This document shows, piece by piece, positions 5,811 through 25,581 of a DNA stretch of 32,104 nt. Source of the DNA: Promethearchaeota archaeon (lineage in GTDB: Archaea > Asgardarchaeota > Lokiarchaeia > Sigyniarchaeales > SOKP01); contig JBHLNS010000037.1 of NCBI GenBank assembly GCA_048941285.1, positions 1 through 32,104 of the forward strand, read 5' to 3'. Both the position numbers and the translations under genes were made by a program. Numbering within the stretch: the stretch's first letter is position 1; the number at the start of each line of letters is the position of its first letter. The notes under the pieces were generated by a model. It was not told where the DNA came from. It searched no databases and worked only from the letters and a program-made list of their open reading frames with translations.

Positions 5811-6851
5811 ATGATGACACAAAACCAGATATTATGTGTTACATATTTTGATCAGGTCATCGGACCAAGCACTTTATATTCTAATGAAACGTTTTCTGGG
5901 TCATCAGACGCCCCAGACGTTAACCGAATTCTTGAATTCAATGATGAAGAAGGCACATTCATTTTTGCTTATAGAAAGTTTCAAACAGTTAATCATATCT
6001 TTTATATGGATTCTGATTTAGCTCGTGGTGGCAAAGAGTTAATGATGATTACTTATATGATTAAAACCGCAATCTTTAAAGATGAAATCGTTGATGTTTT
6101 TAAATATTTAGATTCCAAAGCACCTGTTTTAGAAGAATTTGCAGCTGAGATACAAAAATTAGAAGATATTTTATCAATTCTACACTTAAAAAAAAGTGCT
6201 CGATCTATTAAATATGTATTAGATTTAGCAAATGATGATTTAAAAAGTAGTTTCCTAGATATATTCAATAAATACTTTGCAAAACTGTCTCCAAAATACA
6301 TGTTAGAGACACCAATTAAGGATAAGCGTCTAATAAAAAAAATTTTTATCATTGGAGCACCTAAGGTTGGAAAGACAACATTTCTAAAGAATATCGAATT
6401 AATCCAATTTTTAAATATTAAAAGAAATGATCTACCAAGCAGGATTTTTGAAGTAATTATAGAAAACCTTGAAATTTTAAAATATGATGATAATTTAAGC
6501 GCATTTGAATGTAAAGAATTTGAGAATTTGCAGAATTGCATAAATTTCTCCCAAGGATTTATTCTACTTTTTAATTTGTCAGATAAAAATTCAATTATCA
6601 GGACAAAAGAAATTTTTAAAATTGTAGACAATACACGTTTAGAATTAGAAACAGATTTAGCACCAATATTGATTATAGGAAATAAGTTCCATGATAAAGA
6701 AGATATAGATCCTCAGTTTGTGTATGAGACTTTTGAAATACAAGAATTAGAGGAAATTGGGATTAAAATCAAGTATTTTCCGATAAATATTTTAAAAGAT
6801 GATGAAAAAGTAATGGAAGCATTACGTTGGTTAATAAAGAACATAATTTGA
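5811..6851 (+). CDS. Longin/uDENN-like domain fused to a degenerate Ras-like small GTPase domain
   Basis: The N-terminus has 'ILCVTYFDQVIGP' and 'HIFYMDSDLARGG'. The C-terminus has G1 GAPKVGKT, 'QGFILLFNLSDKNS' and G4-like 'PILIIGNKFHD'. No DxxG motif. Confidence 0.75.
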   Translation: MMTQNQILCVTYFDQVIGPSTLYSNETFSGSSDAPDVNRILEFNDEEGTFIFAYRKFQTVNHIFYMDSDLARGGKELMMITYMIKTAIFKDEIVDVFKYLDSKAPVLEEFAAEIQKLEDILSILHLKKSARSIKYVLDLANDDLKSSFLDIFNKYFAKLSPKYMLETPIKDKRLIKKIFIIGAPKVGKTTFLKNIELIQFLNIKRNDLPSRIFEVIIENLEILKYDDNLSAFECKEFENLQNCINFSQGFILLFNLSDKNSIIRTKEIFKIVDNTRLELETDLAPILIIGNKFHDKEDIDPQFVYETFEIQELEEIGIKIKYFPINILKDDEKVMEALRWLIKNII

Positions 6852-6993
6852 GTTTAATTTTAAAGGAAAAAAGCTTCATTAAGAAACTTTTATCATGAAA
6901 ATATCCATCCAGCAAATCTTTTAAATTATTATAAATATAATAAATAAAATTATACAAACATTCAACCTTAAATATTAATTAAATTTGATAAAA

Positions 6994-7344
6994 ATGGCAT
7001 TCAAAGGAATAGCGTGGGGAATTGTATTCTTTTTTACAGCTATTATATATTTAATAATTCCCTCTTACTTAATAATAAGGTTTTGGGTGTGGTTGAACAG
7101 CTTTCCTGTATATACTTTATCATTATTTATGTTATTTTTATGGATTGTAGCAATTATAATTTTTTTAATATATGTTGTAGCAATGATAAGAGCCTTCATT
7201 CAAAGGAATAATGAAGAAGGACTTGGTATTCCGAGGGGTGTAAAGGGTTTCGGATTGGTTTCTACAATCACAGTATTATCTTTTATGTTAATTTGGTTTT
7301 TAATTTTTAACCAATTAGCCTTTTTCTCTATGGTACCTCCTTAA
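6994..7344 (+). CDS. Small hypothetical membrane protein (3 TM)
   Basis: Three long hydrophobic segments with one charged loop 'QRNNEEGLGIPRGVKG'. ATG at 6994. Confidence 0.75.
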   Translation: MAFKGIAWGIVFFFTAIIYLIIPSYLIIRFWVWLNSFPVYTLSLFMLFLWIVAIIIFLIYVVAMIRAFIQRNNEEGLGIPRGVKGFGLVSTITVLSFMLIWFLIFNQLAFFSMVPP

Positions 7345-9754: not shown

Positions 9755-11956
9755 TTAAAGATTAAGCTTCTGTCTCCAAATTTTCATTGAAAGTTTTAAC
9801 TCATCTTGTTCCGGGCGGCTTAATATTTCTGGATTACTTTTTAATTCCGTACTTATATTATGCACGTTTTTGAGAACACTATTATAGCCTTCTATTTTCA
9901 CATATTCATTTTGAAATCGTTCTAATGCTAATGATATTTCGGTTCCAGTCATGTTATCTATACTATTAATAATTTCATCAAATTGATTTGATAAGACCGT
10001 CTGTTTTGGAGATCCAATAACTTCTCTTTTGACAGGTTCTTCTTCCTCTGGAGGAATTGCGATTGCGGGGATGGTGGTAAACGGTTCCTCTTTTAATGGT
10101 TCTTCTTTAAGAGGTTCTCCTAAAATAGGTTTCTTAATTGTTCGCATTACTTCCTTTCTTGCTCCAACCCATGCATCTTCAATTATTGGTACAAAAATTT
10201 TGATATGTTCCTCAATAATACTTCCAATGCCTGCAATTTCAGTTACTGTTTCTCCTCTAATTTCAGTCTTAGAAAGAACACATAATATTACTTCTTCATA
10301 ATCTTTATTTACAGCCCAAAGGTTTTGAAGTGCTCGATTTCTATAATCAACATTATCCATTTTATCCATTTCTCTCATAATTGCTTCATGTTCAGGAATA
10401 GTAGGATCAATGTATGCTGCAATTCTGAAATTAATACGCGAGGGTCGGGCTTTTATTGACTCTATATCGATATCGGAAAGGTTTGGAGCGACTATCAAAA
10501 CTCTCATTTTAGCTTTCGAGATTTCTTCATTAATATGAGCTTTAGCTGCTTCTGGAGAGCGAATAAACCAGATATCTTTCATCGTAAAACCTCGAGTACC
10601 TTTTGCTTGCTCCCAGAATTCTCTTGTAGTAATTTCGCTAACTTCTAAACGGTTCATAATATCCGATAATGTGTTATCTAACGTATCAACAATTCCTTTT
10701 CCAAATATATCTTTTATATTTCCAAATGATTCAAAAATACCCCCAGAAAGTCCATCAATTCTTTCTTCAGCTAATTTTACAGCCTTATTGAAATTTTCTG
10801 AAAGATCTGTAAATATTTTATCTTTAGCATCTCCTGTTTTAGAAGCAATCGAATCTATATTTTTAACAGCTCCTTGAAGTGAATCCTTTAGTTTTGATAT
10901 AACCTCTGTATTTAATCCTTGAGTGGCCTTTTTCAATTCGTCAGCAAAAACTGTTTGGCTTACACTTAATTGCACGTTTAAATTATCAGAAATATCTTTT
11001 AAGCGAGATGCAATAACTTTATCAATAACATCTCCTACTGCTTGTTGAATTACTCCTAAACGTAGTTTCTGTAAATTATCTGTTATAGTTTCTTTAATAT
11101 CACCAAACTGATTGCGAAGATCATCAACTTGATTCTTAATTATTTGGGATGTTCTAACATTAAGAGTATCAAATTGTTTTGATAAAGAATCCAATTGATC
11201 ATCACTAAGAGATTTTGAAATATCTCCAAGTTGAGACAAATCTTCTGAAATTGTTCTAATTTGATCTATTGCAGAAATTGTCTCATCAAACTCTTGTTTT
11301 TGAGCTTGAATTTGAGAGAGCATTTTTTCTTTTAATCCTGACATTGCTTCACTTGATTGCTTTAATCTTTCCATTCCTTCCGCTTCTGATTCAAGTTTAG
11401 TAAAAGATACATCTAACTGTTTTGGGATTTGTGATTTTATCTCAGAAATATATTTATGAAACTTCTGTAATTGTGCTATTAAAGCAGCATAAGGAGGCAA
11501 AGCTTGATAATGAGGTGTTGCTCCAACTATTTCTTTAAATAAGCCCTTTTCTACAAATTTTTCAGCAATTTTGTTACAATCTTCTTTCGATCTACCAGTT
11601 AAAATAGACATTTCACCAATCGACACTGCTTCTCGGCCAGTAGTTCGAAAATAAAGGTCTATTTCCTCGTCTGACAAATCTATTTCACTTAAAACTTGTT
11701 TTGTTAGCTCTTTCGAATAAGAAACATCTTTAGCTTTTTCTATTACATCCTTTATTTCAAAATTCTCAACTTCTAAATATTGATTTAAAAAGACAATTAG
11801 TTTATGAGGGGGTTCCCCATGAACATATTCTTTGCTGATTGGGAATTTATTGATTTCTCTATATTCATCAATAGAAATTGGAAATTTTATCTCTTTTAAA
11901 CATATTTTGCAAGTAATTGGAACCTCAACAACATTTTTATCTTTAAATAGATACAT
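9755..11956 (-). CDS. TrmB-like multidomain protein: Zn-binding-like N-domain, TrmB wHTH, ~290-aa helical/coiled-coil insert, PLD-like effector domain, P/E linker, helical C-domain
   Basis: CKIC...HGEPPH at the N-terminus. 'LSDEEIDLY...SIGEMSILTG...FVEKGLFKEIVGATPHYQALPP' matches the TrmB HTH. 'IWFIRSPEAAKAHINEEISKAKMRVLIVAP' matches the start of the TrmB C-terminal domain. Confidence 0.7.
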   Translation of the reverse strand: MYLFKDKNVVEVPITCKICLKEIKFPISIDEYREINKFPISKEYVHGEPPHKLIVFLNQYLEVENFEIKDVIEKAKDVSYSKELTKQVLSEIDLSDEEIDLYFRTTGREAVSIGEMSILTGRSKEDCNKIAEKFVEKGLFKEIVGATPHYQALPPYAALIAQLQKFHKYISEIKSQIPKQLDVSFTKLESEAEGMERLKQSSEAMSGLKEKMLSQIQAQKQEFDETISAIDQIRTISEDLSQLGDISKSLSDDQLDSLSKQFDTLNVRTSQIIKNQVDDLRNQFGDIKETITDNLQKLRLGVIQQAVGDVIDKVIASRLKDISDNLNVQLSVSQTVFADELKKATQGLNTEVISKLKDSLQGAVKNIDSIASKTGDAKDKIFTDLSENFNKAVKLAEERIDGLSGGIFESFGNIKDIFGKGIVDTLDNTLSDIMNRLEVSEITTREFWEQAKGTRGFTMKDIWFIRSPEAAKAHINEEISKAKMRVLIVAPNLSDIDIESIKARPSRINFRIAAYIDPTIPEHEAIMREMDKMDNVDYRNRALQNLWAVNKDYEEVILCVLSKTEIRGETVTEIAGIGSIIEEHIKIFVPIIEDAWVGARKEVMRTIKKPILGEPLKEEPLKEEPFTTIPAIAIPPEEEEPVKREVIGSPKQTVLSNQFDEIINSIDNMTGTEISLALERFQNEYVKIEGYNSVLKNVHNISTELKSNPEILSRPEQDELKLSMKIWRQKLNL
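10083..10120 (-). repeat. Short imperfect 15-bp tandem repeat encoding GEPLK-EEPLK-EEP
   Basis: Visible in both protein and DNA within the low-complexity linker. Confidence 0.55.
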
Positions 11957-11989
11957 CTTTTTATATCATCTCTTTTAATTTTTACATTT

Positions 11990-13243
11990 TCAAAATGTTA
12001 CCTTTTCAGGATATGTTATTTCTAACAAACTAAGAGCTTTCCTTGCGATTTCAAAAGTTATTGCTCCATCAGCTTCTTGATTTTTATAAGCGGCTCTAAT
12101 TTTGGGAAGCAAAAATTCTGGAAATACTATTAATGGTTTTATATCAGTTAATAGACATATCCATTTTCTATCATTGTCGTCGATAATCTCTGTTATAATA
12201 TTTAGTTTCTTTAAATCGTCTAACAAAATCTCAGTAACAGCAAATTCAGAAAAAATTTTGGGTATTTTATCTAATGGGTAATGGTTGTGCCTCATTAATA
12301 CGAAAAAATCATAAACATCCGGATTTAAAAGAATTGATGCTAATTTTCTTGTTTCTTCAAGTGGTTCAGCATAAGGATCATAATTTGCAAAAAAGTCAAT
12401 GACTTTTTGTTTATATTTTGGCAATAATTCGTTTTTTGTTTCTTTAAAATGGTTTAATAAATTTTCGTTTGGAATACGTGTAATCATTATATCCTTGACT
12501 AAGAATAAATATTCTCCTTGATGTGAGATTTCACCTGTTTTTTTATCTTTTTCTCCTTTAATCCAATCTCTCCGAATAATATTTAACTCTAAAAATGGTT
12601 GAAGTAGAATGTCAACATTTATAGTAGAAGTCATTTTTTCTAGTATAGACTTCATATCTTTTTTTGAAATTGGAGCCTCTCGGAGAATCTGCAAGATTTT
12701 TAAGCGTTCATTGCTATTATAGATCAAAGCTGCTTTTTGGAGTTTATCTAAATTAGATAATCTGTCTACTTGGAAAATTGTGAATTTAATCTCATTTTTG
12801 AGTCTTATATTGATGTTTTCTATCAAAGAAAGTTGCTTAGAATTTCTAGCACGAGTTAATTTATCAAAAATTACATCTAATCGATTACCCATTTCTTTAA
12901 TTAAACCATCAAATATCTCAATTTCATCATCCAATTCAAATATAGAGATAGCTAAATACTGAGTTCCATCAGCAACTTGTTTGAAATAAGATACTACTTG
13001 ATAAGGAGTTTCTTTTAATCTTCCCTCAAAAAAGTTGCTATAACTATATTTAACCCCAAAAAGTCCTGTAGTATGCTGATAAAAAATTGCGAAAATATCA
13101 TTTTCAACTAATAATTCTGAAAAATTTTCTTCATCAAATTTATCTTCACGGAATATTAATTGAATTGGTTCAAATTCCGGTTCTATTTCTCCCGTTTCTT
13201 TTTGATTGATTTTAAACTGAAATGTCAAAATACCTTGGATCAA
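11990..13243 (-). CDS. Hypothetical protein: longin-like N-domain plus two tandem winged-helix-like repeats
   Basis: TTG start preceded by AGAGGA. Apparent beta-beta-alpha-beta-beta-beta-alpha-alpha pattern at the N-terminus. Internal repeat 'ILLQPFLELNII...LFLVKDIMITRIP' vs 'ILLDDLKKLNII...ICLLTDIKPLIVFP'. The ORF is solid; the domain call is inferred. Confidence 0.6.
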   Translation of the reverse strand: MIQGILTFQFKINQKETGEIEPEFEPIQLIFREDKFDEENFSELLVENDIFAIFYQHTTGLFGVKYSYSNFFEGRLKETPYQVVSYFKQVADGTQYLAISIFELDDEIEIFDGLIKEMGNRLDVIFDKLTRARNSKQLSLIENINIRLKNEIKFTIFQVDRLSNLDKLQKAALIYNSNERLKILQILREAPISKKDMKSILEKMTSTINVDILLQPFLELNIIRRDWIKGEKDKKTGEISHQGEYLFLVKDIMITRIPNENLLNHFKETKNELLPKYKQKVIDFFANYDPYAEPLEETRKLASILLNPDVYDFFVLMRHNHYPLDKIPKIFSEFAVTEILLDDLKKLNIITEIIDDNDRKWICLLTDIKPLIVFPEFLLPKIRAAYKNQEADGAITFEIARKALSLLEITYPEKVTF

Positions 13244-13437
13244 TTTTAGAATCCTCTTGAATAATTTATTATACTTCAGTTATTGAAATATATATAATAA
13301 TTTCTTAAGTAACTTATTATTATTAATTTTATTTAATTTGCGTGTGAAAAATCAAGTATAATATTAAAATCTATATTAAACAATAAACATGATTTAAAAT
13401 AATATATTTTTTTTATTTATAGGGGTTACTGTGATTT

Positions 13438-16400
13438 ATGAAATCAAAATCTAAAAAGAAAATAGTACAATTATTAATTGTCCTTGCTGCATTTCTATTT
13501 TTCCTAAACATCTTCGCCATACCAGTAAGAGGTGAGCACTTAACAAAAACAACTTATATTGAAGAGTGGATAGAGAATTCAGATTTTGATGATAGTGTAG
13601 GTTGGATATCCGAAATCTCTGGAGATGTCACTGATGTTAATAATGACATTAGTGTTGGTGTAGCCAATTTTAATATACAAGGAAAAATGTATACAAACAC
13701 ATTGATATCAGGAACGCCTAATTCTTCAACATCAGAAGGATGGAATAATAATACAAATCCAGAAATACCTGTTTATCCCACGCAAGGGCATGGAATTGAT
13801 AAGTATGGTTGTTTTGCTTCACATTTATGGGCTGAACATCTTGGGACTACTACTAATGCTTATCAAAAAACTAGTGTTCAATGGGAAAAGGTAATAACAA
13901 CACCCCATAACATGTCAGACTATACCATAACTAATGCTTCATTAGAGGTTGAGATTAATGCAACTGCTAAAGCTTTTATAGGATGTGGTAGTGGAGATGT
14001 GTGGCATTGGGAAGGTGTTGAAGCAGTTGGTGATACAACTGATGTAGTTCGATTCATTGAAGGAGATTTCATTAGGTTTTTTGTTAGACTTTCAAATTTA
14101 AATAAAGATGTTAATTATAAGGTAGCTCAATTTCAAACTACAACTTTAGGATATGATGGAGCAGAAATAAATGGTTCTTATGATTATTTGGACGACATGG
14201 TATTTTATGCTGACGATATGGAGGATCTCATATTCTTTTTAAACCAAGTGTTAGAAAATGGTGATTTTCAGAATTTTCTCATCATATTGGGGATGGAATT
14301 TAATTGCGAGGACAATTGCGCTACTGATTTAGATGAATTCACTAAAGCTTATTTCAAAACTTGTAATTTAACAATTTCCTATATAAAGAAAATTAATAGG
14401 TTAACCACAGCATCATGGAAATATCTTGGAGACATGATTGACAATAGGGGGGGATTTGTAGAAATTAATTATGCAACTTTGCAATTTGATTATAGAATAA
14501 ATGTTGAATGGCCTAGTGATCTATCACCCAATTCTGAAATTAGAATCCTAATAAATGATAACGAGCACACTGAGACAATTGAATTAAAATTTGCTGAGAC
14601 ACATTTTAAACCAGCAAAAATTGAAGGATTTGAGATAGGTACTTTAATTCCTAATAATGAAGAGATAAATCTTACCATACAAATATTTCTAGCAGATGAG
14701 TTTAATTTAATAGAAGACCTGATAATTAGCATAGATAATGTTGAATTGAATATATCATATGATATTTTCCTTCATGTTACAGACGATCCTCTATTTATTA
14801 TATTACTAATTATAGCTCTAATAGGTTCTTCTTTATTGGGAGCGTATTTTGTATACTATAGGCTAGTTTTGAGATTTCCCAGTCAAGTAAGAAAAGTCCG
14901 GAAATTTCGTAGAACACTCAATAAGAGGGATCCTCCTAAAGTGATAATAAAAAGTCGCGAAAAAGTCTTTAATTCAATTTACAATAAAGAATTGAAGAAA
15001 ACTTCGAGTGCTATAAGTTTAAAGCCCTCTACAAAAGTATTATCTAAAAAACCGATATCAAATACAAAAGAGGATAACAAGGACCTTTCAAAAAAGCTTA
15101 TAATCATTTTTTTCATTATTATTGGTTTTTTCATTGTTCCTACAATTAATTGTTTCTTTTCTAATTCATTTATACGCCATGAAAAAGTAATGAGTTTAAA
15201 TATGCTACAAGTTGGAAACTCATTTTTATTTAATAGAATTTCTCATAATGAACAATGGATTGAAAATCCCAGTTTTAATACAAATGATAATTGGACAATG
15301 TTTATGCAGGGTGATATAACTGATTTGGCTTTGGATATTAGCAATGGTAGTGGAAACTATGAAATTCTAGGTAATTATGGGACTCAAGAATTTTATGAAG
15401 ATGGTACTAGTACTAACTGGACTAGACTTCAAAATGAGGATAATATTGTATTGCCTGATTATTTCGACACTATTTCAAGTGGTGGGTCAGGGATGGATGA
15501 GCGAGGTTGGTACTCATACTTTTTTTGGCCAGATAATCAACCTCAATCGGTGAAAGTTCAATGGATGAAGAATTTTACTATGAATGTAAATATGTCAGAT
15601 TATTATATTACATCTGCGTCTTTAGAAGCGTGGATTAATGGAACTGTAGATGATAGTCCGGTGAATGGTGGAGGTATTGATAGACCAGGAGACACATTAG
15701 CTGGAGGGACAACAGTCCAAATAGCTACCGGCGATTTTGCTCGGTTTTTCATTATAATTTCAGATGTTGAAAAGAATAGAGAATTTATTGCTGCGCAATA
15801 TCAAACTGATGATTTGGGTAAGGATGGACCTCCTGCCATTTCTCAGTTAAATGATACTCTTATAATGCCTATAAATGAAGAAACATTGATATTTTACATT
15901 GAACAAGCTTTACAGTACGACCATCAAAACTTTGCTATTACATTAGGAATGTATTTTTGGTGTGAAGATAGTGGTCATCCAGGAGATTCAGATGATTGGC
16001 AAATGATGATAATTAAAAACTTTTCCCTATCAATATCCTATGAAAAGAAAATTAACCAATTTTCGACTGCTTCTTGGAATTATAATGGTAAACAAATTGA
16101 AGCTAATGGATACCGTGTTGAAATAAGAGATGCTCAACTCAAGTTCGAATCAAAATTGGACAAACTATGGCCATCTGATTTGTCTCCAAATTCTAAATTT
16201 AAAATTCTTATTAATGGTGTTGAACATAACGAAACAATTCGATTAAATGATATAGGTACATTGTTTCAAAATGTTACAGAAACTGGATTTAGTGTTGGCA
16301 GAATAATCCCAAATGATAATGTGATAAATCTCACAATTCAAGTATATCTAGCAGATGAATTTGCATTACGAGAGAATATAAAAATTTCTATAGATAATGT

Positions 16401-16875
16401 AAGTCTCTGGATTTCTTATTATGTATTCATTCCAATAAGAGAATTTCTATTATATCAGATTTTATTTGTTTTAGCATGTATTTGTGCTGGAGGTTTAGCT
16501 TCTTACGTGGTATTATACCAAAAAATATTAAAATATCCTAAAACTGTGCGAAAAGTCAGGAAATATCGAAAATCTTTACGTAAGGAAAAAGTACCAGAAA
16601 TCCCGATAAAAAGTCGAGAGTCAACATTTAAACATTCATATAATCAGGAAATGACTAAAATATCCCAATTATTAAATGCTAAATTATTATTGCGTAGAGG
16701 TGAAAAGGGAGAAGCAGGAGAAATAGATTTAGAATCCATTGAGCAATCTCAAAGCAATGTAGATGAAAAGATAAAATCTGAGGAATTAATCACCAAGTCA
16801 TTGGAAAAGAAGGAAGAACTTGATAAATTAGTTAAAGATTCTATTGGAGATGCATCGGAAACAAATAAATCTTGA
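13438..16875 (+). CDS. Large membrane-anchored surface (glyco)protein with two tandem paralogous extracellular modules (A+B fusion)
   Basis: Order: signal/TM, ~410-aa beta-rich module, TM, basic motif 'RFPSQVRKVRKFRR', TM, second module, TM, 'KYPKTVRKVRKYRK', charged tail. Many N-x-S/T sequons. Confidence 0.8.
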   Translation: MKSKSKKKIVQLLIVLAAFLFFLNIFAIPVRGEHLTKTTYIEEWIENSDFDDSVGWISEISGDVTDVNNDISVGVANFNIQGKMYTNTLISGTPNSSTSEGWNNNTNPEIPVYPTQGHGIDKYGCFASHLWAEHLGTTTNAYQKTSVQWEKVITTPHNMSDYTITNASLEVEINATAKAFIGCGSGDVWHWEGVEAVGDTTDVVRFIEGDFIRFFVRLSNLNKDVNYKVAQFQTTTLGYDGAEINGSYDYLDDMVFYADDMEDLIFFLNQVLENGDFQNFLIILGMEFNCEDNCATDLDEFTKAYFKTCNLTISYIKKINRLTTASWKYLGDMIDNRGGFVEINYATLQFDYRINVEWPSDLSPNSEIRILINDNEHTETIELKFAETHFKPAKIEGFEIGTLIPNNEEINLTIQIFLADEFNLIEDLIISIDNVELNISYDIFLHVTDDPLFIILLIIALIGSSLLGAYFVYYRLVLRFPSQVRKVRKFRRTLNKRDPPKVIIKSREKVFNSIYNKELKKTSSAISLKPSTKVLSKKPISNTKEDNKDLSKKLIIIFFIIIGFFIVPTINCFFSNSFIRHEKVMSLNMLQVGNSFLFNRISHNEQWIENPSFNTNDNWTMFMQGDITDLALDISNGSGNYEILGNYGTQEFYEDGTSTNWTRLQNEDNIVLPDYFDTISSGGSGMDERGWYSYFFWPDNQPQSVKVQWMKNFTMNVNMSDYYITSASLEAWINGTVDDSPVNGGGIDRPGDTLAGGTTVQIATGDFARFFIIISDVEKNREFIAAQYQTDDLGKDGPPAISQLNDTLIMPINEETLIFYIEQALQYDHQNFAITLGMYFWCEDSGHPGDSDDWQMMIIKNFSLSISYEKKINQFSTASWNYNGKQIEANGYRVEIRDAQLKFESKLDKLWPSDLSPNSKFKILINGVEHNETIRLNDIGTLFQNVTETGFSVGRIIPNDNVINLTIQVYLADEFALRENIKISIDNVSLWISYYVFIPIREFLLYQILFVLACICAGGLASYVVLYQKILKYPKTVRKVRKYRKSLRKEKVPEIPIKSRESTFKHSYNQEMTKISQLLNAKLLLRRGEKGEAGEIDLESIEQSQSNVDEKIKSEELITKSLEKKEELDKLVKDSIGDASETNKS

Positions 16876-17056
16876 GGAATTTCACTCCTAGTCATTAAAA
16901 TTTATCAATTAATATCCAAGCTTTTAAATCTTAAATTATCCTTGTTTCAAGATAAAGTTATGCCCAATTTGAATAAATCTAATCTTTTTCTCAAAGATGT
17001 TAAATAGAATTAGACAAAAACATGATAAATAAGTTTTTTAATAAACATTATTTAAT

Positions 17057-17090
17057 TAATTCTTAAGAATTATTTAATACAAGTATTAAA
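17057..17090. promoter_or_regulatory. Two abutting dyad-symmetry elements, candidate regulator binding sites
   Basis: TAATTCTT|AAGAATTA at 17057-17072 is a perfect 16-bp palindrome. TTTAATAC-AA-GTATTAAA follows at 17073-17090. Confidence 0.35.
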
Positions 17091-17159
17091 ATAATATAAT
17101 ATTAAATTCATTAAAGAATAGATATATAAGAATATTCAAAGTGTTGGTGATAGGTTTTA

Positions 17160-18794
17160 ATTAGAAAATATAATCATCAAAGAAATAATAAAAATTATTT
17201 CTTTATATTTATCATTTTAACCTTGTTTTTGTGTATTTTCATCTCTAATTTTGGATCAAATTATCTTTTGGCGCAGAAATCCAATATCGAAAATATTCGC
17301 ACATCAGCAGAAATACCTTATGGACTTCAATGGCTTGATAATAGATTTTTTGATGATGATTCAGCATGGATAGCAAGTGAAGAGGGGGATGGATCTGATG
17401 TTGATGCCTTAATTAGTGATGGTACCGGAAATTATTATATTCACGGTGATTCAGATATCCTAAGAATTGATGATCCCCTTAATGATATTGACTGGATTGC
17501 AAAAAGAAATCCAAATTTACCCATTTTACCTGATAATTATAATATTAATTCATCAGGAGCCCATGTCTCTCATTTATGGCATGAAGATATTAATCAAACT
17601 CGCAATCGCCCAAGTGTGCAATGGCAAAGGACAGTAAATATGCCTGTTGATATGAGAGACTATATTATAACATCTGCCTCCCTTGAAGCTGATTTCAATG
17701 CCACAGTGACAGTTTCTCCTTGGAATAATGGTGGCATAGACAGAGAAGGAGACACTGGTTTAGACGATTACTCTACAGGAGATTATACAGAGTTTTATAT
17801 CCTTCTGTCAGATGTTGAAGAAACTTTTCCAGCAGTTACAGTAGCATATAATCACACAGGAAATCTTGGAAGAGATAGTCCTGCCCTAGGAAGTTATCCT
17901 GATACACCTTTAGATATTGTACCTGAGGATGTTTTAATCAGTATTCTATCATCGATTTTGGAGACAGATGGATTCAATTTTGTTATTACTCTGGGAATTG
18001 ATATTTATTGTGAAGATAATGAATTAGGAGTCGATATTGATAGATGGAACTCCTTAAACATTAGATCATTTAATCTCACTTTTTCTTATGAAAAGATAAT
18101 TGATCGATATACTAGTGTTTCATGGGAACAAGCAGGAGACCAGATTACCGGCAATAATACTCAAATAAGGAAAGCGGAGTTGAATTTTGAATTTAACATT
18201 AATACTACTTGGCCTTCTATTGCATCTCCGAACTCAGAAATCCGTGTTTTTATCAATAATAAACAATTAACAGAATCAATTAAATTAAGTAGAGCAGAGT
18301 CTTTCCTACAGGAGGCATATCCAGGTAGATTGGATGTAACATCATTTATATCGAAAGATATTGAAATTGCACTTAAAATTCAAATATTCATAGCAGATGA
18401 ATTTGGATTAGGTGAGGAGATTACAATTTCCATCGATAATTTATATTTTCGGATTGAATATGTTGTAATTACAAGTGATATATTGCGTGAGCCATGGTTC
18501 TTTAGGGTTTTACTAATCATTGCTAGTTTTGTAGGTTTAGGTATTGGTGGCTATTTATTTGCGTATCAAAGGGTTTTAAAATATCCAAAACCCGTGAGGA
18601 AGGTAAGAAAATATAGAAGAACTTTAGCTAAGAAAAATGGACCTACGACATTTATTTTAGAGCGAGAAAAAGCTTTTAAGAAAGAGTATGACAGGGAATT
18701 AGCAAAAACATCTTCATTCATAAGAGGAAAACCATCTGTAGAATCTACGGGTACTAAAGAAATTAATCAACCAAAACAATCAATTGAATCATAA
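17160..18794 (+). CDS. Membrane-anchored surface protein, single module (A-type paralog); start uncertain (ATT 17160 or TTG 17223)
   Basis: Shares motifs with 13438-16875: SVQW, MxDYxITxASLE, CEDN, WPSxxSPNSEIR, ADEF, IDN, KYPKPVRKVRKYRR. The frame is open from 17154 and encodes the rest of the signal anchor. Confidence 0.78.
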   Translation: MRKYNHQRNNKNYFFIFIILTLFLCIFISNFGSNYLLAQKSNIENIRTSAEIPYGLQWLDNRFFDDDSAWIASEEGDGSDVDALISDGTGNYYIHGDSDILRIDDPLNDIDWIAKRNPNLPILPDNYNINSSGAHVSHLWHEDINQTRNRPSVQWQRTVNMPVDMRDYIITSASLEADFNATVTVSPWNNGGIDREGDTGLDDYSTGDYTEFYILLSDVEETFPAVTVAYNHTGNLGRDSPALGSYPDTPLDIVPEDVLISILSSILETDGFNFVITLGIDIYCEDNELGVDIDRWNSLNIRSFNLTFSYEKIIDRYTSVSWEQAGDQITGNNTQIRKAELNFEFNINTTWPSIASPNSEIRVFINNKQLTESIKLSRAESFLQEAYPGRLDVTSFISKDIEIALKIQIFIADEFGLGEEITISIDNLYFRIEYVVITSDILREPWFFRVLLIIASFVGLGIGGYLFAYQRVLKYPKPVRKVRKYRRTLAKKNGPTTFILEREKAFKKEYDRELAKTSSFIRGKPSVESTGTKEINQPKQSIES

Positions 18795-20622
18795 AAATTA
18801 CCAGAAAGTAATAAATAGATATAGAAAATTATGGAGGTTTAATAAACTTTTGAGAAAAAAAAATTATCTAGAAAAATACCTTATAATAACAATATTCTTT
18901 CTAATTCCATTATTTTCTAGTATTATTATAACAAATACTTATGTTAAAAATACTGAATTTGATATTAACACTGACAAGCTCAAGAGTTCAAGGATAGAGT
19001 ATCATTTAAATAATTCCTGGATAGAAAACTCTAAATTTGATGGATCTGGGCAGCCTTGGGAATCTAGACTTGAGGGAGATTCCAAGGATATTACTGGTGA
19101 TATTTCTTTGGGTTCAGCAAATTATAAGATAATTGGGGACTCAGGAATAATGCAAATCGATGATCCCCTTAATAATATCGACTGGCAAGATTATAATAAT
19201 CCAGAATTTCCAATATCACCGGATACCAATGGCAGTTCTTCAGCAGGTTTATATATAACTCATGAATGGGATGAAAATGTTGATCAAACACGAAATACAC
19301 CAAGTATTCATTGGAAAAGAACATTTACGATGCCAGTAGATATGTCAGATTATATTATTTCTGATGCCTCCCTTGAAGTAATTTTCAATGCAACGGTCAC
19401 AGCTGTAGGTTCAAATCCCTTACAGCCACATATAGGAGGAATTGAACGACCTGGCGACTATACAGAATCAAATCCACCGAGCATTCCTCAGTTTGGAATA
19501 GGAGATTTTGCCACATTTTATGTTTTAATATCAGATATTGATAATAGAAATTCATTTACACTAGCTATAAACCAAACTACAGATCTTGGACAAGATACTC
19601 CAGAAATATCATATTATTCAGATACCCTTCTTGATACTGTTCCTAAAAATATTCTTATTACTTATTTAAATTCAATATTGCAGTATGATAATTTCAATTT
19701 TGTAATTACTTTGGGTATTGATGTATATTGTGAAGATAATGAATATAACGTTGATGTGGATACATGGGATATGTTAATAATGCGATCTTTTAATTTAACC
19801 TTTTCTTACGAGAAAAAAGTTGATCAACATACCTCATTTGCCTGGGAACAAGTAGGAGATGCAATACCAGGAAGAAATATTCAAGTTACAGAAGCTAATG
19901 TTAACTTTAAGTATAAAATTGATAGACCTTGGCCTGTCAGTGCTTCACCAAATTCCGAAATTAGAGTGCTGTTTAATAATAATTCAATGACAGAGACAAT
20001 CCGGTTAAGTACAGCTAATAACTCCTTCCAAATAGCAAAGGAAGGAGGGTATGACGTTAGATCACTTATTTTGAAAAATGTAAATATCACAATTTCCATC
20101 CAAGTTTATATGGCTGATGAATTTGGCTTAGATCAAAATGTGACAGTTTACATTGATGATGTTTATTTAACAATTTCATATATCGAGATTTTTCGGGATA
20201 TTTTCAATGAACCTTGGGTATTTGCTGCGCTACTAGTTTTCGCTAGTGTAGCTACTGCAGGCATTGGTGGATATTTTATTGCTTATCAAAGAGTTTTAAA
20301 ATACCCTAGACCAGTTAGAAAAGTAATAAAATATAGAAGAACTCTAAACAGAACTCAAGAGCCAGAAATCGCTATAATGCCTCGAGATGTGTCATTTAAT
20401 ATGGCATATAAACATGAATTAACTACATCTTCTAAAATATTAAAAATAAAACCAGCTGAAGGAAAAGAACCTGTTGTTTCTGGAAAAGAAGCTATTGAAA
20501 AAACATCCGAAAAAGTTGTTGAAGAAAAAATTGCCTCTGAAGAATTAATTTCAAAATCTTTAGAAAAAAAAGAAGAACTTGATGAGATAGTAAAAGATTC
20601 ATCAAGAGCAGATAAATCCTAA
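18784..20622 (+). CDS. Membrane-anchored surface protein, single module (B-type paralog with conserved cytoplasmic tail)
   Basis: Same module motifs. The TTG start overlaps the upstream gene by 11 nt. The tail EKIASEELISKSLEKKEELDEIVKDS matches the tail of 13438-16875. Confidence 0.8.
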   Translation: MNHKNYQKVINRYRKLWRFNKLLRKKNYLEKYLIITIFFLIPLFSSIIITNTYVKNTEFDINTDKLKSSRIEYHLNNSWIENSKFDGSGQPWESRLEGDSKDITGDISLGSANYKIIGDSGIMQIDDPLNNIDWQDYNNPEFPISPDTNGSSSAGLYITHEWDENVDQTRNTPSIHWKRTFTMPVDMSDYIISDASLEVIFNATVTAVGSNPLQPHIGGIERPGDYTESNPPSIPQFGIGDFATFYVLISDIDNRNSFTLAINQTTDLGQDTPEISYYSDTLLDTVPKNILITYLNSILQYDNFNFVITLGIDVYCEDNEYNVDVDTWDMLIMRSFNLTFSYEKKVDQHTSFAWEQVGDAIPGRNIQVTEANVNFKYKIDRPWPVSASPNSEIRVLFNNNSMTETIRLSTANNSFQIAKEGGYDVRSLILKNVNITISIQVYMADEFGLDQNVTVYIDDVYLTISYIEIFRDIFNEPWVFAALLVFASVATAGIGGYFIAYQRVLKYPRPVRKVIKYRRTLNRTQEPEIAIMPRDVSFNMAYKHELTTSSKILKIKPAEGKEPVVSGKEAIEKTSEKVVEEKIASEELISKSLEKKEELDEIVKDSSRADKS

Positions 20623-24559: not shown

Positions 24560-25048
24560 TTAAGAGTATTGCTCAAAATTAATCTGAATTATTTTTCTAA
24601 TAGCTTTTTCAACCTGATCTTCAATAGTTTTAAGAATATTTCTATAAGTTTCATTAGATGTGTAATATGGATCGATAATATCAATATTATCAGATTCTCC
24701 GTTAAATTCCTTTAGTGTAAATGTTTTTTTTATAATCTCTCGAATGTTTGGAAAGGAATTTTTAATATCTTCTGATTGATGCCTTTCCATTGTTAGAATT
24801 AAGTCCTGTTTTTCTAATAATCTACGGTTTATTATTTTTGGAATAAAATCTGAATGTCTAATCCCTTTCTGGTTTAAATAATTCTGAGATTCAGGTTGCA
24901 TATAATCAAAAGCATTGAAAAATCCACAAGAGTCAAATTCCAGGTCTACATCAAGTTTCTTAGCATAATAACGCGCTAAATATTCTGCTGCTGGAGATCT
25001 TGCAGTATTTCCTAGACAGACAAAAAGTATTCGCCTGATTTTATTCAT
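24560..25048 (-). CDS. Low-molecular-weight protein phosphatase family (paralog 2, CLGNTARS)
   Basis: P-loop 'LFVCLGNTARSPAAE', 'DLILTME' and 'IIDPY'. Confidence 0.9.
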   Translation of the reverse strand: MNKIRRILFVCLGNTARSPAAEYLARYYAKKLDVDLEFDSCGFFNAFDYMQPESQNYLNQKGIRHSDFIPKIINRRLLEKQDLILTMERHQSEDIKNSFPNIREIIKKTFTLKEFNGESDNIDIIDPYYTSNETYRNILKTIEDQVEKAIRKIIQINFEQYS

Positions 25049-25074
25049 ATATGTTCAATTCATTTTCATTATGT

Positions 25075-25581
25075 TTACAATAAATCTTCTGATTTGTTAT
25101 ATTCAATAATCTTTTTAACTGTTTTCAATACACCATTCTCAATTTTTTCAAGAATTTTATTATATTCTTCATGAGGTAAATAAAATGGATCTTTAATTTC
25201 TAGATTTTGCTTTTCTCCAGCAAAATCTAATAATAAGAATAATTTTTTATCAAGATCTCTAAGATTTTTGAACTTTCTTTTCACCTTATTAATATGATGT
25301 TTTTGTTCGAATCCTAAAATAAGATCTTGTTTTTCCAATAATTGAAAATCTATTCTTTTCGTTTTAAATTCACCAATGTCGATACCTTTAGACTTCAAAT
25401 AATTTACAGTCTCTGGTTGAGCAGTTTCATAGTAATGATAAATACCAGCTGAGTCAAATTCTATATTATTCAACTCTTTTCTAAATTTTGTTTCTTTCAA
25501 CCATTTTGCATATGCTTCTGCAAAAGGACTTCTACAAGTATTACCTGCACAAATAAAAAGTACTTTCTTTATTTTGGACAT
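25075..25581 (-). CDS. Low-molecular-weight protein phosphatase family (paralog 1, CAGNTCRS)
   Basis: P-loop 'LFICAGNTCRSPFAE', 'DSAG', 'DLILGFE' and 'IKDPF'. Confidence 0.92.
   Translation of the reverse strand: MSKIKKVLFICAGNTCRSPFAEAYAKWLKETKFRKELNNIEFDSAGIYHYYETAQPETVNYLKSKGIDIGEFKTKRIDFQLLEKQDLILGFEQKHHINKVKRKFKNLRDLDKKLFLLLDFAGEKQNLEIKDPFYLPHEEYNKILEKIENGVLKTVKKIIEYNKSEDLL

Follow-up and report, generated by a model that had tools for sequence, protein, structure and literature searches.

Does a predicted longin domain in a Lokiarchaeial protein carry the arginine finger of a GTPase-activating protein (GAP), and if so, for which GTPase? The question is raised by a gene at 5811..6851 (+) of contig JBHLNS010000037.1 (assembly GCA_048941285.1, a Promethearchaeota archaeon), which we analysed over a stretch of 32,104 nucleotides, hereafter the window. 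In eukaryotes, longin-domain GAPs (FLCN, GATOR1, C9orf72-SMCR8) serve nutrient signalling and lysosomal traffic, and their origin is sought in Asgard archaea. The original prediction, drawn from the letters of the window, held the gene to be a Rosetta-stone fusion of a longin GAP with a GTPase fold, possibly a prokaryotic precursor of FLCN/GATOR1/C9orf72-type switches, an interpretation that our analysis supports in part. We read the protein as a two-domain cytosolic regulator, in which a longin of the FLCN/NPRL2/SMCR8 GAP class would act in trans and a degenerate G-like domain would be regulatory, and we give this joint reading a probability of about 0.5.

The gene and its family

The gene is a single open frame (translation table 11) encoding 346 residues followed by a stop codon. 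Its product (P0001) comprises a longin domain (residues 1-165, 5811..6305), delimited by an AlphaFold2 (AF2) model and by Foldseek and VIA matches, a linker (residues 166-172, 6306..6326) with low predicted local distance difference test (pLDDT) values, and an Arf-family-derived G-like domain (residues 173-346, 6327..6848), placed by Pfam, a family profile and VIA. Two neighbouring ATG codons are found, at 5811 and 5814. Because most orthologues begin one residue later, at the second of these ('MSQ...'), ATG 5814 may be the true start; the residue numbers used here would then be one too high, and the candidate finger arginine would be residue 71. Both peptides on which the original prediction rested, ILCVTYFDQVIGPSTLYS (residues 7-24) and NHIFYMDSDLARGGKELMMITYMI (residues 61-84), were recovered from the frame, as was the CGT codon of R72 at 6024-6026, and the span of 5811-6290 noted there corresponds to residues 1-160. 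By Pfam, P0001 gave a marginal match to Arf (PF00025) over residues 176-345, scoring 24.1 bits where the cut-off is 22.3 (E 2.8e-5), and no match on residues 1-170; NCBIfam added nothing beyond Pfam.

At E ≤ 0.001, a word-indexed search with P0001 returned 309 homologues. Of these, the top 120 are 59-88% identical to it, are nearly all 343-348 residues long and, where their sources are named, come from Promethearchaeota- or Lokiarchaeota-type metagenome-assembled genomes (MAGs). An exhaustive search of cluster representatives gave 108 matches at E ≤ 0.001, of which 28 reached E ≤ 1e-30, with identity falling to about 20%, and orthologues were located in 21 named Promethearchaeota-type MAG loci. 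Among 201 sampled genomes of the phylum, P0001 was matched in 48, including open frames in all 40 sampled genomes of its own taxonomic family, to which the full-length matches above 40% identity were restricted. Conservation was scored over 164 stored relatives of 290-380 residues, divided into identity bands of at least 55% (118 rows, the close clade), 30-55% (16 rows) and below 30% (30 rows, the canonical relatives). Conservation reaches 97% or more at 93 positions of the close clade.

A chance frame in AT-rich DNA, or a decaying pseudogene, might be suspected from the low local G+C (0.26-0.31 around the gene, 0.24-0.33 over the stretch) and from an antisense open reading frame (ORF) of 192 residues within the gene (6053-6631, -), which is probably itself a by-product of the AT-rich sequence. 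Conservation refutes this: the 309 homologues, the open frames in 40 of 40 genomes of the family and the 93 near-invariant positions, together with confident structure models, reduce its probability to practically nil. The gene is real and conserved, and it comes from a Lokiarchaeia-type Asgard archaeon.

Predicted fold of the N-terminal domain

The AF2 model of residues 1-170, built from a 52-row alignment, reached a pLDDT of 86.0 and a predicted template-modelling score (pTM) of 0.84. As assigned by DSSP, the models comprise strands at residues 6-14, 18-24, 48-54, 57-67 and 75-85 and helices at 37-43 and 96-159, giving the β-β-α-β-β-β-α order of the longin fold in the predicted structure. 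In the usual longin sheet, the hairpin of strands 1 and 2 and that of strands 4 and 5 lie side by side.

Searched against the PDB with Foldseek, the N-domain model gave 15 matches at E ≤ 0.001, and every one of those listed is either a chain from an FLCN-FNIP2, GATOR1/KICSTOR, SEAC or Lst4 entry or belongs to 8yqg, the Lokiarchaeal longin. The top match was 8dhb_J (E 8.8e-6), with 6ulg_L/N and 6nzd_H, likewise from FLCN-FNIP2 entries, also listed. By VIA-align, the solved Lokiarchaeal longin 8yqg_B scored highest (Z 12.2), followed by 8dhb_J (Z 11.2), 6ulg_L (Z 11.0) and 6nzd_H (Z 10.9), these three with root-mean-square deviations of 3.0-3.3 Å over 134-146 residues, and then by chains of GATOR1 (Z 10.6-10.7) and Lst4 (Z 9.9-10.6). 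Longins of Sec22b, TRAPP, Ykt6 and VAMP7 gave Z 8.2-10.2, and a wide VIA search returned 19 chains at Z ≥ 8, all 19 of longin/roadblock type. The tool leaves chains unnamed, and we take 8dhb_J, 6ulg_L and 6nzd_H for FLCN because they cover an identical residue range. What stands out in these model-based comparisons is the Foldseek ranking together with the 19% identity to the three putative FLCN chains, where the other listed longins have 5-12%. The strand order and the top matches of both programs support the longin fold that was originally predicted; among solved structures, its closest relatives are the FLCN/GATOR1/Lst4 class and the Lokiarchaeal longin.

Sequence methods gave no link between the N-domain and FLCN or NPR2. 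P0001 had no match to PF11704 (Folliculin) or PF06218 (NPR2) at E ≤ 10 and is no member of either family by profile; among the N-domains of 13 relatives, Pfam returned one PF11704 match, at E 0.076, and nothing significant. A same-genome paralogue, L008, scored 16.8 bits against a cut-off of 23.3 in the folliculin/NPR2 profile test, and an Atlas lead consisted of one cluster with NPR2 on 19% of its members (score 0.84). Searching with an N-domain profile, A4, we obtained 115 proteins, none of which carries the name folliculin, SMCR8 or NPRL2; all organisms named by the sources are Asgard archaea, and the remaining entries are labelled as sediment or subsurface metagenome.

A longin-like chain next to an Arf-like one also recalls the SRX and SRbeta subunits of the eukaryotic signal recognition particle (SRP) receptor, of which P0001 might be a covalently joined version. 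Some relatives are named 'signal recognition particle receptor subunit beta' by their sources, canonical relatives weakly match PF09439 SRPRB (e.g. P0207, E 5.1e-13), and SRX chains occur in the fold lists. Those chains, however, reach only Z 6.0-7.2 against about 11 for the FLCN chains, Arf PF00025 lies far above SRPRB in every relative scanned, and P0001 has no SRPRB match at all, which makes an SRP receptor pair very improbable.

The GP motif and a candidate arginine finger

Two motifs tie the domain to the longin GAPs. In the AF2 models, G18-P19 (GGA CCA, 5862..5867) opens strand 2, preceded by F13, the position described for the GP motif in section 2.4 of PMC12290439. A71-R72-G73 (GCT CGT GGT, 6021..6029), the candidate arginine finger, lies in the seven-residue loop that joins strands 4 and 5. 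Across the three bands, in order of falling identity, R72 is kept in 118/118, 14/16 and 29/30 rows, the exceptions being two substitutions (N and K) in the middle band and one gap in the lowest. G18 is kept in 117/118, 16/16 and 26/30 rows and P19 in 117/118, 16/16 and 27/30, with every miss a gap. In a further comparison of 18 rows, seven same-genome paralogues included, R72-G73 was invariant. The conservation of both motifs is far above chance in these alignments, where they stay near-invariant down to about 20% identity, and the retention of the arginine in Asgard homologues, on which the original prediction depended, was borne out.

In the sections of PMC12290439 available to us, the GP motif is placed in the loop before strand 2, or at its start, in FLCN, NPRL2, C9orf72 and SMCR8, is described as absent from FNIP2, NPRL3, adaptins, TRAPP subunits and DENND longins, and is said to neighbour the arginine finger; both motifs are reported there in Asgard longins. 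SMCR8 R147, which the accessible part of bioRxiv 10.1101/2020.04.16.045708 equates with FLCN R164, sits in the βL4-βL5 loop, and in the available description of the active FLCN structure R164 enters the RagC pocket. The modelled position of R72 supports a match to the loop given for these fingers, the correspondence being drawn at the level of the loop.

Both motifs could still be structural if the longin were a non-catalytic platform, either a scaffold for dimerisation and GTPase binding or a platform of guanine nucleotide exchange factor (GEF) type, in the manner of the C-terminal roadblock domains of Rag, of MglB, or of the longins of TRAPP and Mon1-Ccz1. Most longin/roadblock modules are platforms or GEFs and not GAPs, according to the introduction of PMC10933270, the available text of which also presents AF2 homodimer models of Rag-like longin/roadblock-GTPase proteins. 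The best structural match of P0001, 8yqg, was deposited as a dimeric Lokiarchaeal longin, and the longins of TRAPP, Sec22 and Ykt6 score Z 8.5-10.2. The distribution of the GP motif speaks against a platform, at least as far as the accessible text of PMC12290439 gives it: present in FLCN, NPRL2, C9orf72 and SMCR8, and not in FNIP2, NPRL3, adaptins, TRAPP or DENND. So does the hairpin arginine, whose invariance at about 20% identity would be unusual for a purely structural role. We regard a platform as possible but doubtful.

Related longins in the same genome and beyond

The N-domain profile matched seven places in the organism's own 3.55-Mb assembly, and an eighth longin emerged from a weak PF11704 match (17.5 bits, below cut-off). 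All eight carry F-x4-GP-like and ARG motifs. Apart from P0001, the paralogues (L002-L008, on contigs C32, C31, C39, C20, C30, C14 and C35 of the assembly, G000) comprise two stand-alone longins of 164 and 167 residues, a 224-residue form, a 403-residue form with an unassigned C-terminus, a 330-residue longin with a degenerate G domain that has no P-loop, a longin-PAS-GAF protein, and L008, a longin-Gtr1/RagA protein (PF04670, E 6.4e-25) with an additional C-terminal region without assignment. In the family of the 164-residue stand-alone longin, which has no G domain, the F-x4-GP and [AGSV]RG motifs are found in 47/47 members.

Matches to the class profile occur in 98 of the 201 sampled genomes of the phylum, and in relatives elsewhere the longin module stands at the start of proteins that also contain PAS, GAF and histidine-kinase ATPase domains. 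Close stand-alone relatives of the N-domain itself were sought by a near-length search, which gave 21 proteins, mostly labelled as partial or lying on contigs shorter than 3 kb, and these were set aside. Individual fusions were observed in passing. In P0140 the N-domain is joined to a TIR domain. P0172 and P0180, of 1119 and 1772 residues, begin with the longin-Arf module and have PAS and GAF domains, P0172 having a weak histidine-kinase ATPase match as well.

A degenerate G-like domain of Arf descent

At the level of family, the C-terminal domain clearly descends from an Arf-family G domain. Against PDB chains, the family profile matched Arl8/Arf with E values down to 2.4e-31 and the ArfR chain 8oul at E 3.8e-28, and by VIA residues 172-346 of the model align to Arf6, LokiRagO, LokiRagM and Sar1 at Z 14.5-15.1. 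A DENN origin was considered and rejected: the 50 rows listed by a wide VIA search with the full model are all of G-domain type, with no DENN entry among them. Alignments of FLCN chains span just 212-227 columns when the full model is used and 177-217 with the N-domain by itself.

The Ras-like domain originally proposed for this chain belongs to the Arf family by its PF00025 match but is no intact small GTPase, at least in this clade. The sole G motif kept is the P-loop, GAPKVGKTT (residues 182-190, 6354..6380), which fits the GxxxxGK[ST] pattern. In the close clade, G182, G187 and T190 are each found in 118/118 rows and position 188 is K in 113 and R in 5, while T189 varies (T69 K40 S6 I1 R1); canonical relatives keep G182, G187 and K188 in 26, 27 and 25 of 30 rows. 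At G2, the switch I threonine is replaced by D207 (6429..6431), an aspartate in 117/118 close relatives, whereas 20/30 canonical relatives have T. The segment replacing switch II (residues 225-243, 6483..6539, YDDNLSAFECKEFENLQNC) lacks the DxxGQ motif of G3: the close clade keeps an acidic or related residue at D226 (D101, N13) with no Gly or Gln after it, whereas canonical relatives show D, G and Q in 24, 20 and 18 of 30 rows. At G4, a remnant, NKFHD (6681..6695), stands where NKxD is expected. Its N291 (118/118) and K292 (112/118) persist in the close clade; position 294 is H42 Y18 S18 N11 F8 there, against D26 E3 G1 in the canonical relatives. At G5, P0001 has I-N-I where S-A-K is expected, with N/K-I across the close clade, and canonical relatives have S in 26 and A in 22 of 30 rows. 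G2, G3, G4 and G5 are thus lost in P0001 and likewise across the 118 close orthologues, and, judged by its motifs, the G-like domain of P0001 cannot work as a conventional GTP switch.

Loss of the motifs has not been followed by free decay. The mean identity of the close clade to P0001 is 0.69 in the G-like domain and 0.73 in the longin, and the G-like domain has invariant residues of its own (F232, C234, C243, Y322, D331 and W340), which argues that the alignments record constraint on both domains. The two cysteines among these residues, C234 (116/118) and C243 (118/118), lie in the replaced switch II segment. Six of the 16 mid-clade relatives (P0122, P0125, P0128, P0130, P0131 and P0134) have a C-x6-7-C-x2-C-x5-6-C motif at switch II, of which P0001 keeps the second and fourth cysteines; the motif may represent a former metal site. 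In a tree of 51 rows, with only 14 of the 118 close-clade rows retained and nine rows excluded as fragments or for their different architecture, a branch with a Shimodaira-Hasegawa-like approximate likelihood ratio test (SH-aLRT) value of 100 separates 26 rows, P0001 among them (25 degenerate, 1 partial), from 25 others (18 canonical, 5 partial, 2 degenerate). The loss of G motifs is therefore a shared, derived state.

These observations bear on whether the longin serves the domain to which it is fused. As a GAP in cis, it would fold back on its own G-like domain, or pair with it across a dimer, and R72 would complete an NTPase that has no catalytic glutamine. The two domains are always found in one chain in the 118 close orthologues of 343-348 residues, the P-loop persists (G182 and G187 in 118/118, K188 in 113/118), and a canonical sister clade fuses the same longin to an intact Arf-like domain (D24, G20, Q18 and NKxD D26 of 30). 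Residues of helix 1 and switch I (K193, N194, E196, I198, Q199, F200, L201 and N202), at least 97% conserved, could form a docking surface. The loss of G2-G5 and the change of T189 to K in 40/118 rows, however, argue against regular GTP binding and hydrolysis, and the arginine is equally conserved in longins that have no G domain (47/47). The full-length AF2 model (pTM 0.54, pLDDT below 50 at residues 164-172 in the linker) gives no confident interdomain geometry or packing of one domain on the other. A complex prediction of longin 1-165 with G-like 173-346, GTP and Mg was run twice and scored 0.00 each time, the mark being 0.32, an uncontrolled result that is evidence neither way. Taken together, we find action in cis unlikely.

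The Rosetta-stone logic of the original prediction, in which a GAP is joined to the GTPase on which it acts, cannot stand in its original form. The fused domain no longer has the switch I Thr, DxxGQ, SAK or the Asp of NKxD, and the arginine is kept just as well where no G domain is present.

A GAP-type longin that would act in trans

The arginine and the GP motif are invariant whether the accompanying G domain is intact, degenerate or absent, and the simplest reading is that the longin acts on another molecule; R72 has been retained although its own G domain lost the catalytic motifs. For the GAP chemistry, the action in trans and the client, all of which we infer, the following course may be drawn. 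The longin domain would dock onto a separate, canonical small GTPase and insert R72 into the nucleotide pocket of this client, speeding GTP hydrolysis as in FLCN, NPRL2 and SMCR8. Possible clients are encoded in the genome, for example the longin-RagA-like L008 (PF04670). Regulation or scaffolding, through binding of a nucleotide or a partner, would fall to the degenerate G-like domain.

Several points weigh against a trans-acting GAP. Eukaryotic longin GAPs are longin-DENN heterodimers with the finger in one partner only, whereas every same-genome paralogue here has ARG, and P0001 has no DENN domain. The conserved P-loop (K188 in 113/118) means that the G-like domain may bind nucleotide and could itself be the client. 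Longins that are not GAPs score within about 1-2 Z units of FLCN (Sec22b 10.2, TRAPP 9.8, Ykt6 9.6), so VIA Z values alone do not separate GAP longins from others. In sequence, Pfam found no match on residues 1-165 at E ≤ 10, and the HMMER N-domain profiles A3 and A4 reached no FLCN, NPRL or SMCR8 chain among all PDB sequences; these two profiles and one of the L008 longin gave chance matches only (E ≥ 0.11).

We speculate further that the longin could be a GAP-type module permanently tethered to a pseudo-GTPase, with the cysteine-remnant domain (C234, C243) acting as a built-in pseudosubstrate, or as a metal or redox sensor, that gates the access of R72 to free Arf/Rag-like GTPases. We consider this elaboration quite unlikely. 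If true, it would be a prokaryotic parallel to the design of a longin with an accessory domain in FLCN, NPRL2 and SMCR8, and a snapshot of cis longin-GTPase modules turning into trans-acting GAPs.

For the trans-acting reading, the gene adds a well-conserved, family-wide Lokiarchaeial case of invariant GAP-type motifs next to a G domain that has decayed, which argues that the arginine has a role beyond the domain to which it is fused. P0001 would also make a clean construct with which to test, for the first time biochemically, an archaeal longin as a GAP.

Comparison with known systems

FLCN (Lst7), NPRL2 (Npr2) and SMCR8 share with P0001 the longin fold, as its top structural matches, and the placement of GP at the turn of strands 1 and 2 and of Arg in the loop of strands 4 and 5. 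Unlike them, P0001 has an Arf-derived G-like domain in place of a DENN domain and matches neither PF11704 nor PF06218, and no finger-less heterodimer partner is known for it.

Much of the broader picture is already in print. In the accessible part of their study, Liu et al. (bioRxiv 10.1101/2020.10.19.343400) describe NPRL2-like longins as abundant in Asgard archaea, and they record Rag-family GTPases to which a longin is fused as well as longin fusions to two-component domains. P0001 resembles these NPRL2-like and FLCN/SMCR8-type Asgard longins in lineage, fold class and the GP and Arg motifs, as far as the available text of that preprint and of PMC12290439 describes them, and the fusions to GTPase and PAS/GAF/kinase domains reported there were seen here too. 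Its degenerate G domain sets it apart, being unmentioned for those longins in the portions of text available. Since Asgard NPRL2-like longins, their GTPase fusions and the GP and Arg motifs were all published between 2020 and 2025, the core idea is not new, and the novelty that the original prediction saw in a longin-GTPase fusion was overstated. The degenerate, cysteine-bearing G domain of the Lokiarchaeial clade is the only part that we did not find in print, in a search that covered texts outside supplementary sequence lists. With the general idea published, the gain is incremental unless the GAP activity or the cysteine site proves functional.

Prometheoarchaeum MK-D1 offers comparable architectures. 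In the available part of PMC10933270, Tran et al. include longin-GTPase arrangements among 74 GTPase-like proteins of MK-D1, and these 'L-G' Rag-/Arf-like proteins have, like P0001, a longin followed by a GTPase domain, with an Arf annotation and structural closeness to Rag. They are treated there as GTPases, whereas the clade of P0001 has no G2-G5. Rag/Gtr GTPases also join a G domain to a domain of the roadblock/longin superfamily, and L008 contains a true Gtr1_RagA domain by its PF04670 match. In Rag/Gtr proteins, however, an N-terminal G domain precedes a C-terminal roadblock; in P0001 the order is reversed and PF04670 is not matched. The Asgard ArfR proteins (GerdArfR1, 8oum/8oun; HodArfR1, 8oul) are the best PDB sequence matches of the G-like domain (E 1.4e-4). 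Unlike P0001, they are single-domain proteins with intact motifs, and their DLGGQ aligns opposite FECKEF.

Genomic surroundings

The neighbours of the gene are ordinary and unrelated. Upstream lies an S33-type hydrolase with many hydrophobic segments, and genes of flavin adenine dinucleotide (FAD) and metallo-beta-lactamase (MBL) fold type are found nearby on the opposite strand. An ORF of 119 residues (6985..7344, +) begins 133 nucleotides past the stop codon and comprises three long hydrophobic stretches; Pfam gives it no match. Of 21 related loci, 20 have this ORF directly beside the gene, with the FAD gene nearby in 19/21 and the MBL gene in 17/21. Synteny was rejected as a functional clue, since the entire neighbourhood is syntenic across these close genomes, and a partnership of the 119-residue ORF with P0001 is unsupported by the sequence comparisons.

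Two further features of the window were recorded. Five large ORFs without a Pfam match at E ≤ 1e-5 lie within 9755-20622; those of 733 and 417 residues are on the minus strand, and those of 1145, 523 and 612 residues on the plus strand. At 24560-25581 (-), two low-molecular-weight phosphotyrosine phosphatase (LMWPc) genes form a tandem pair.

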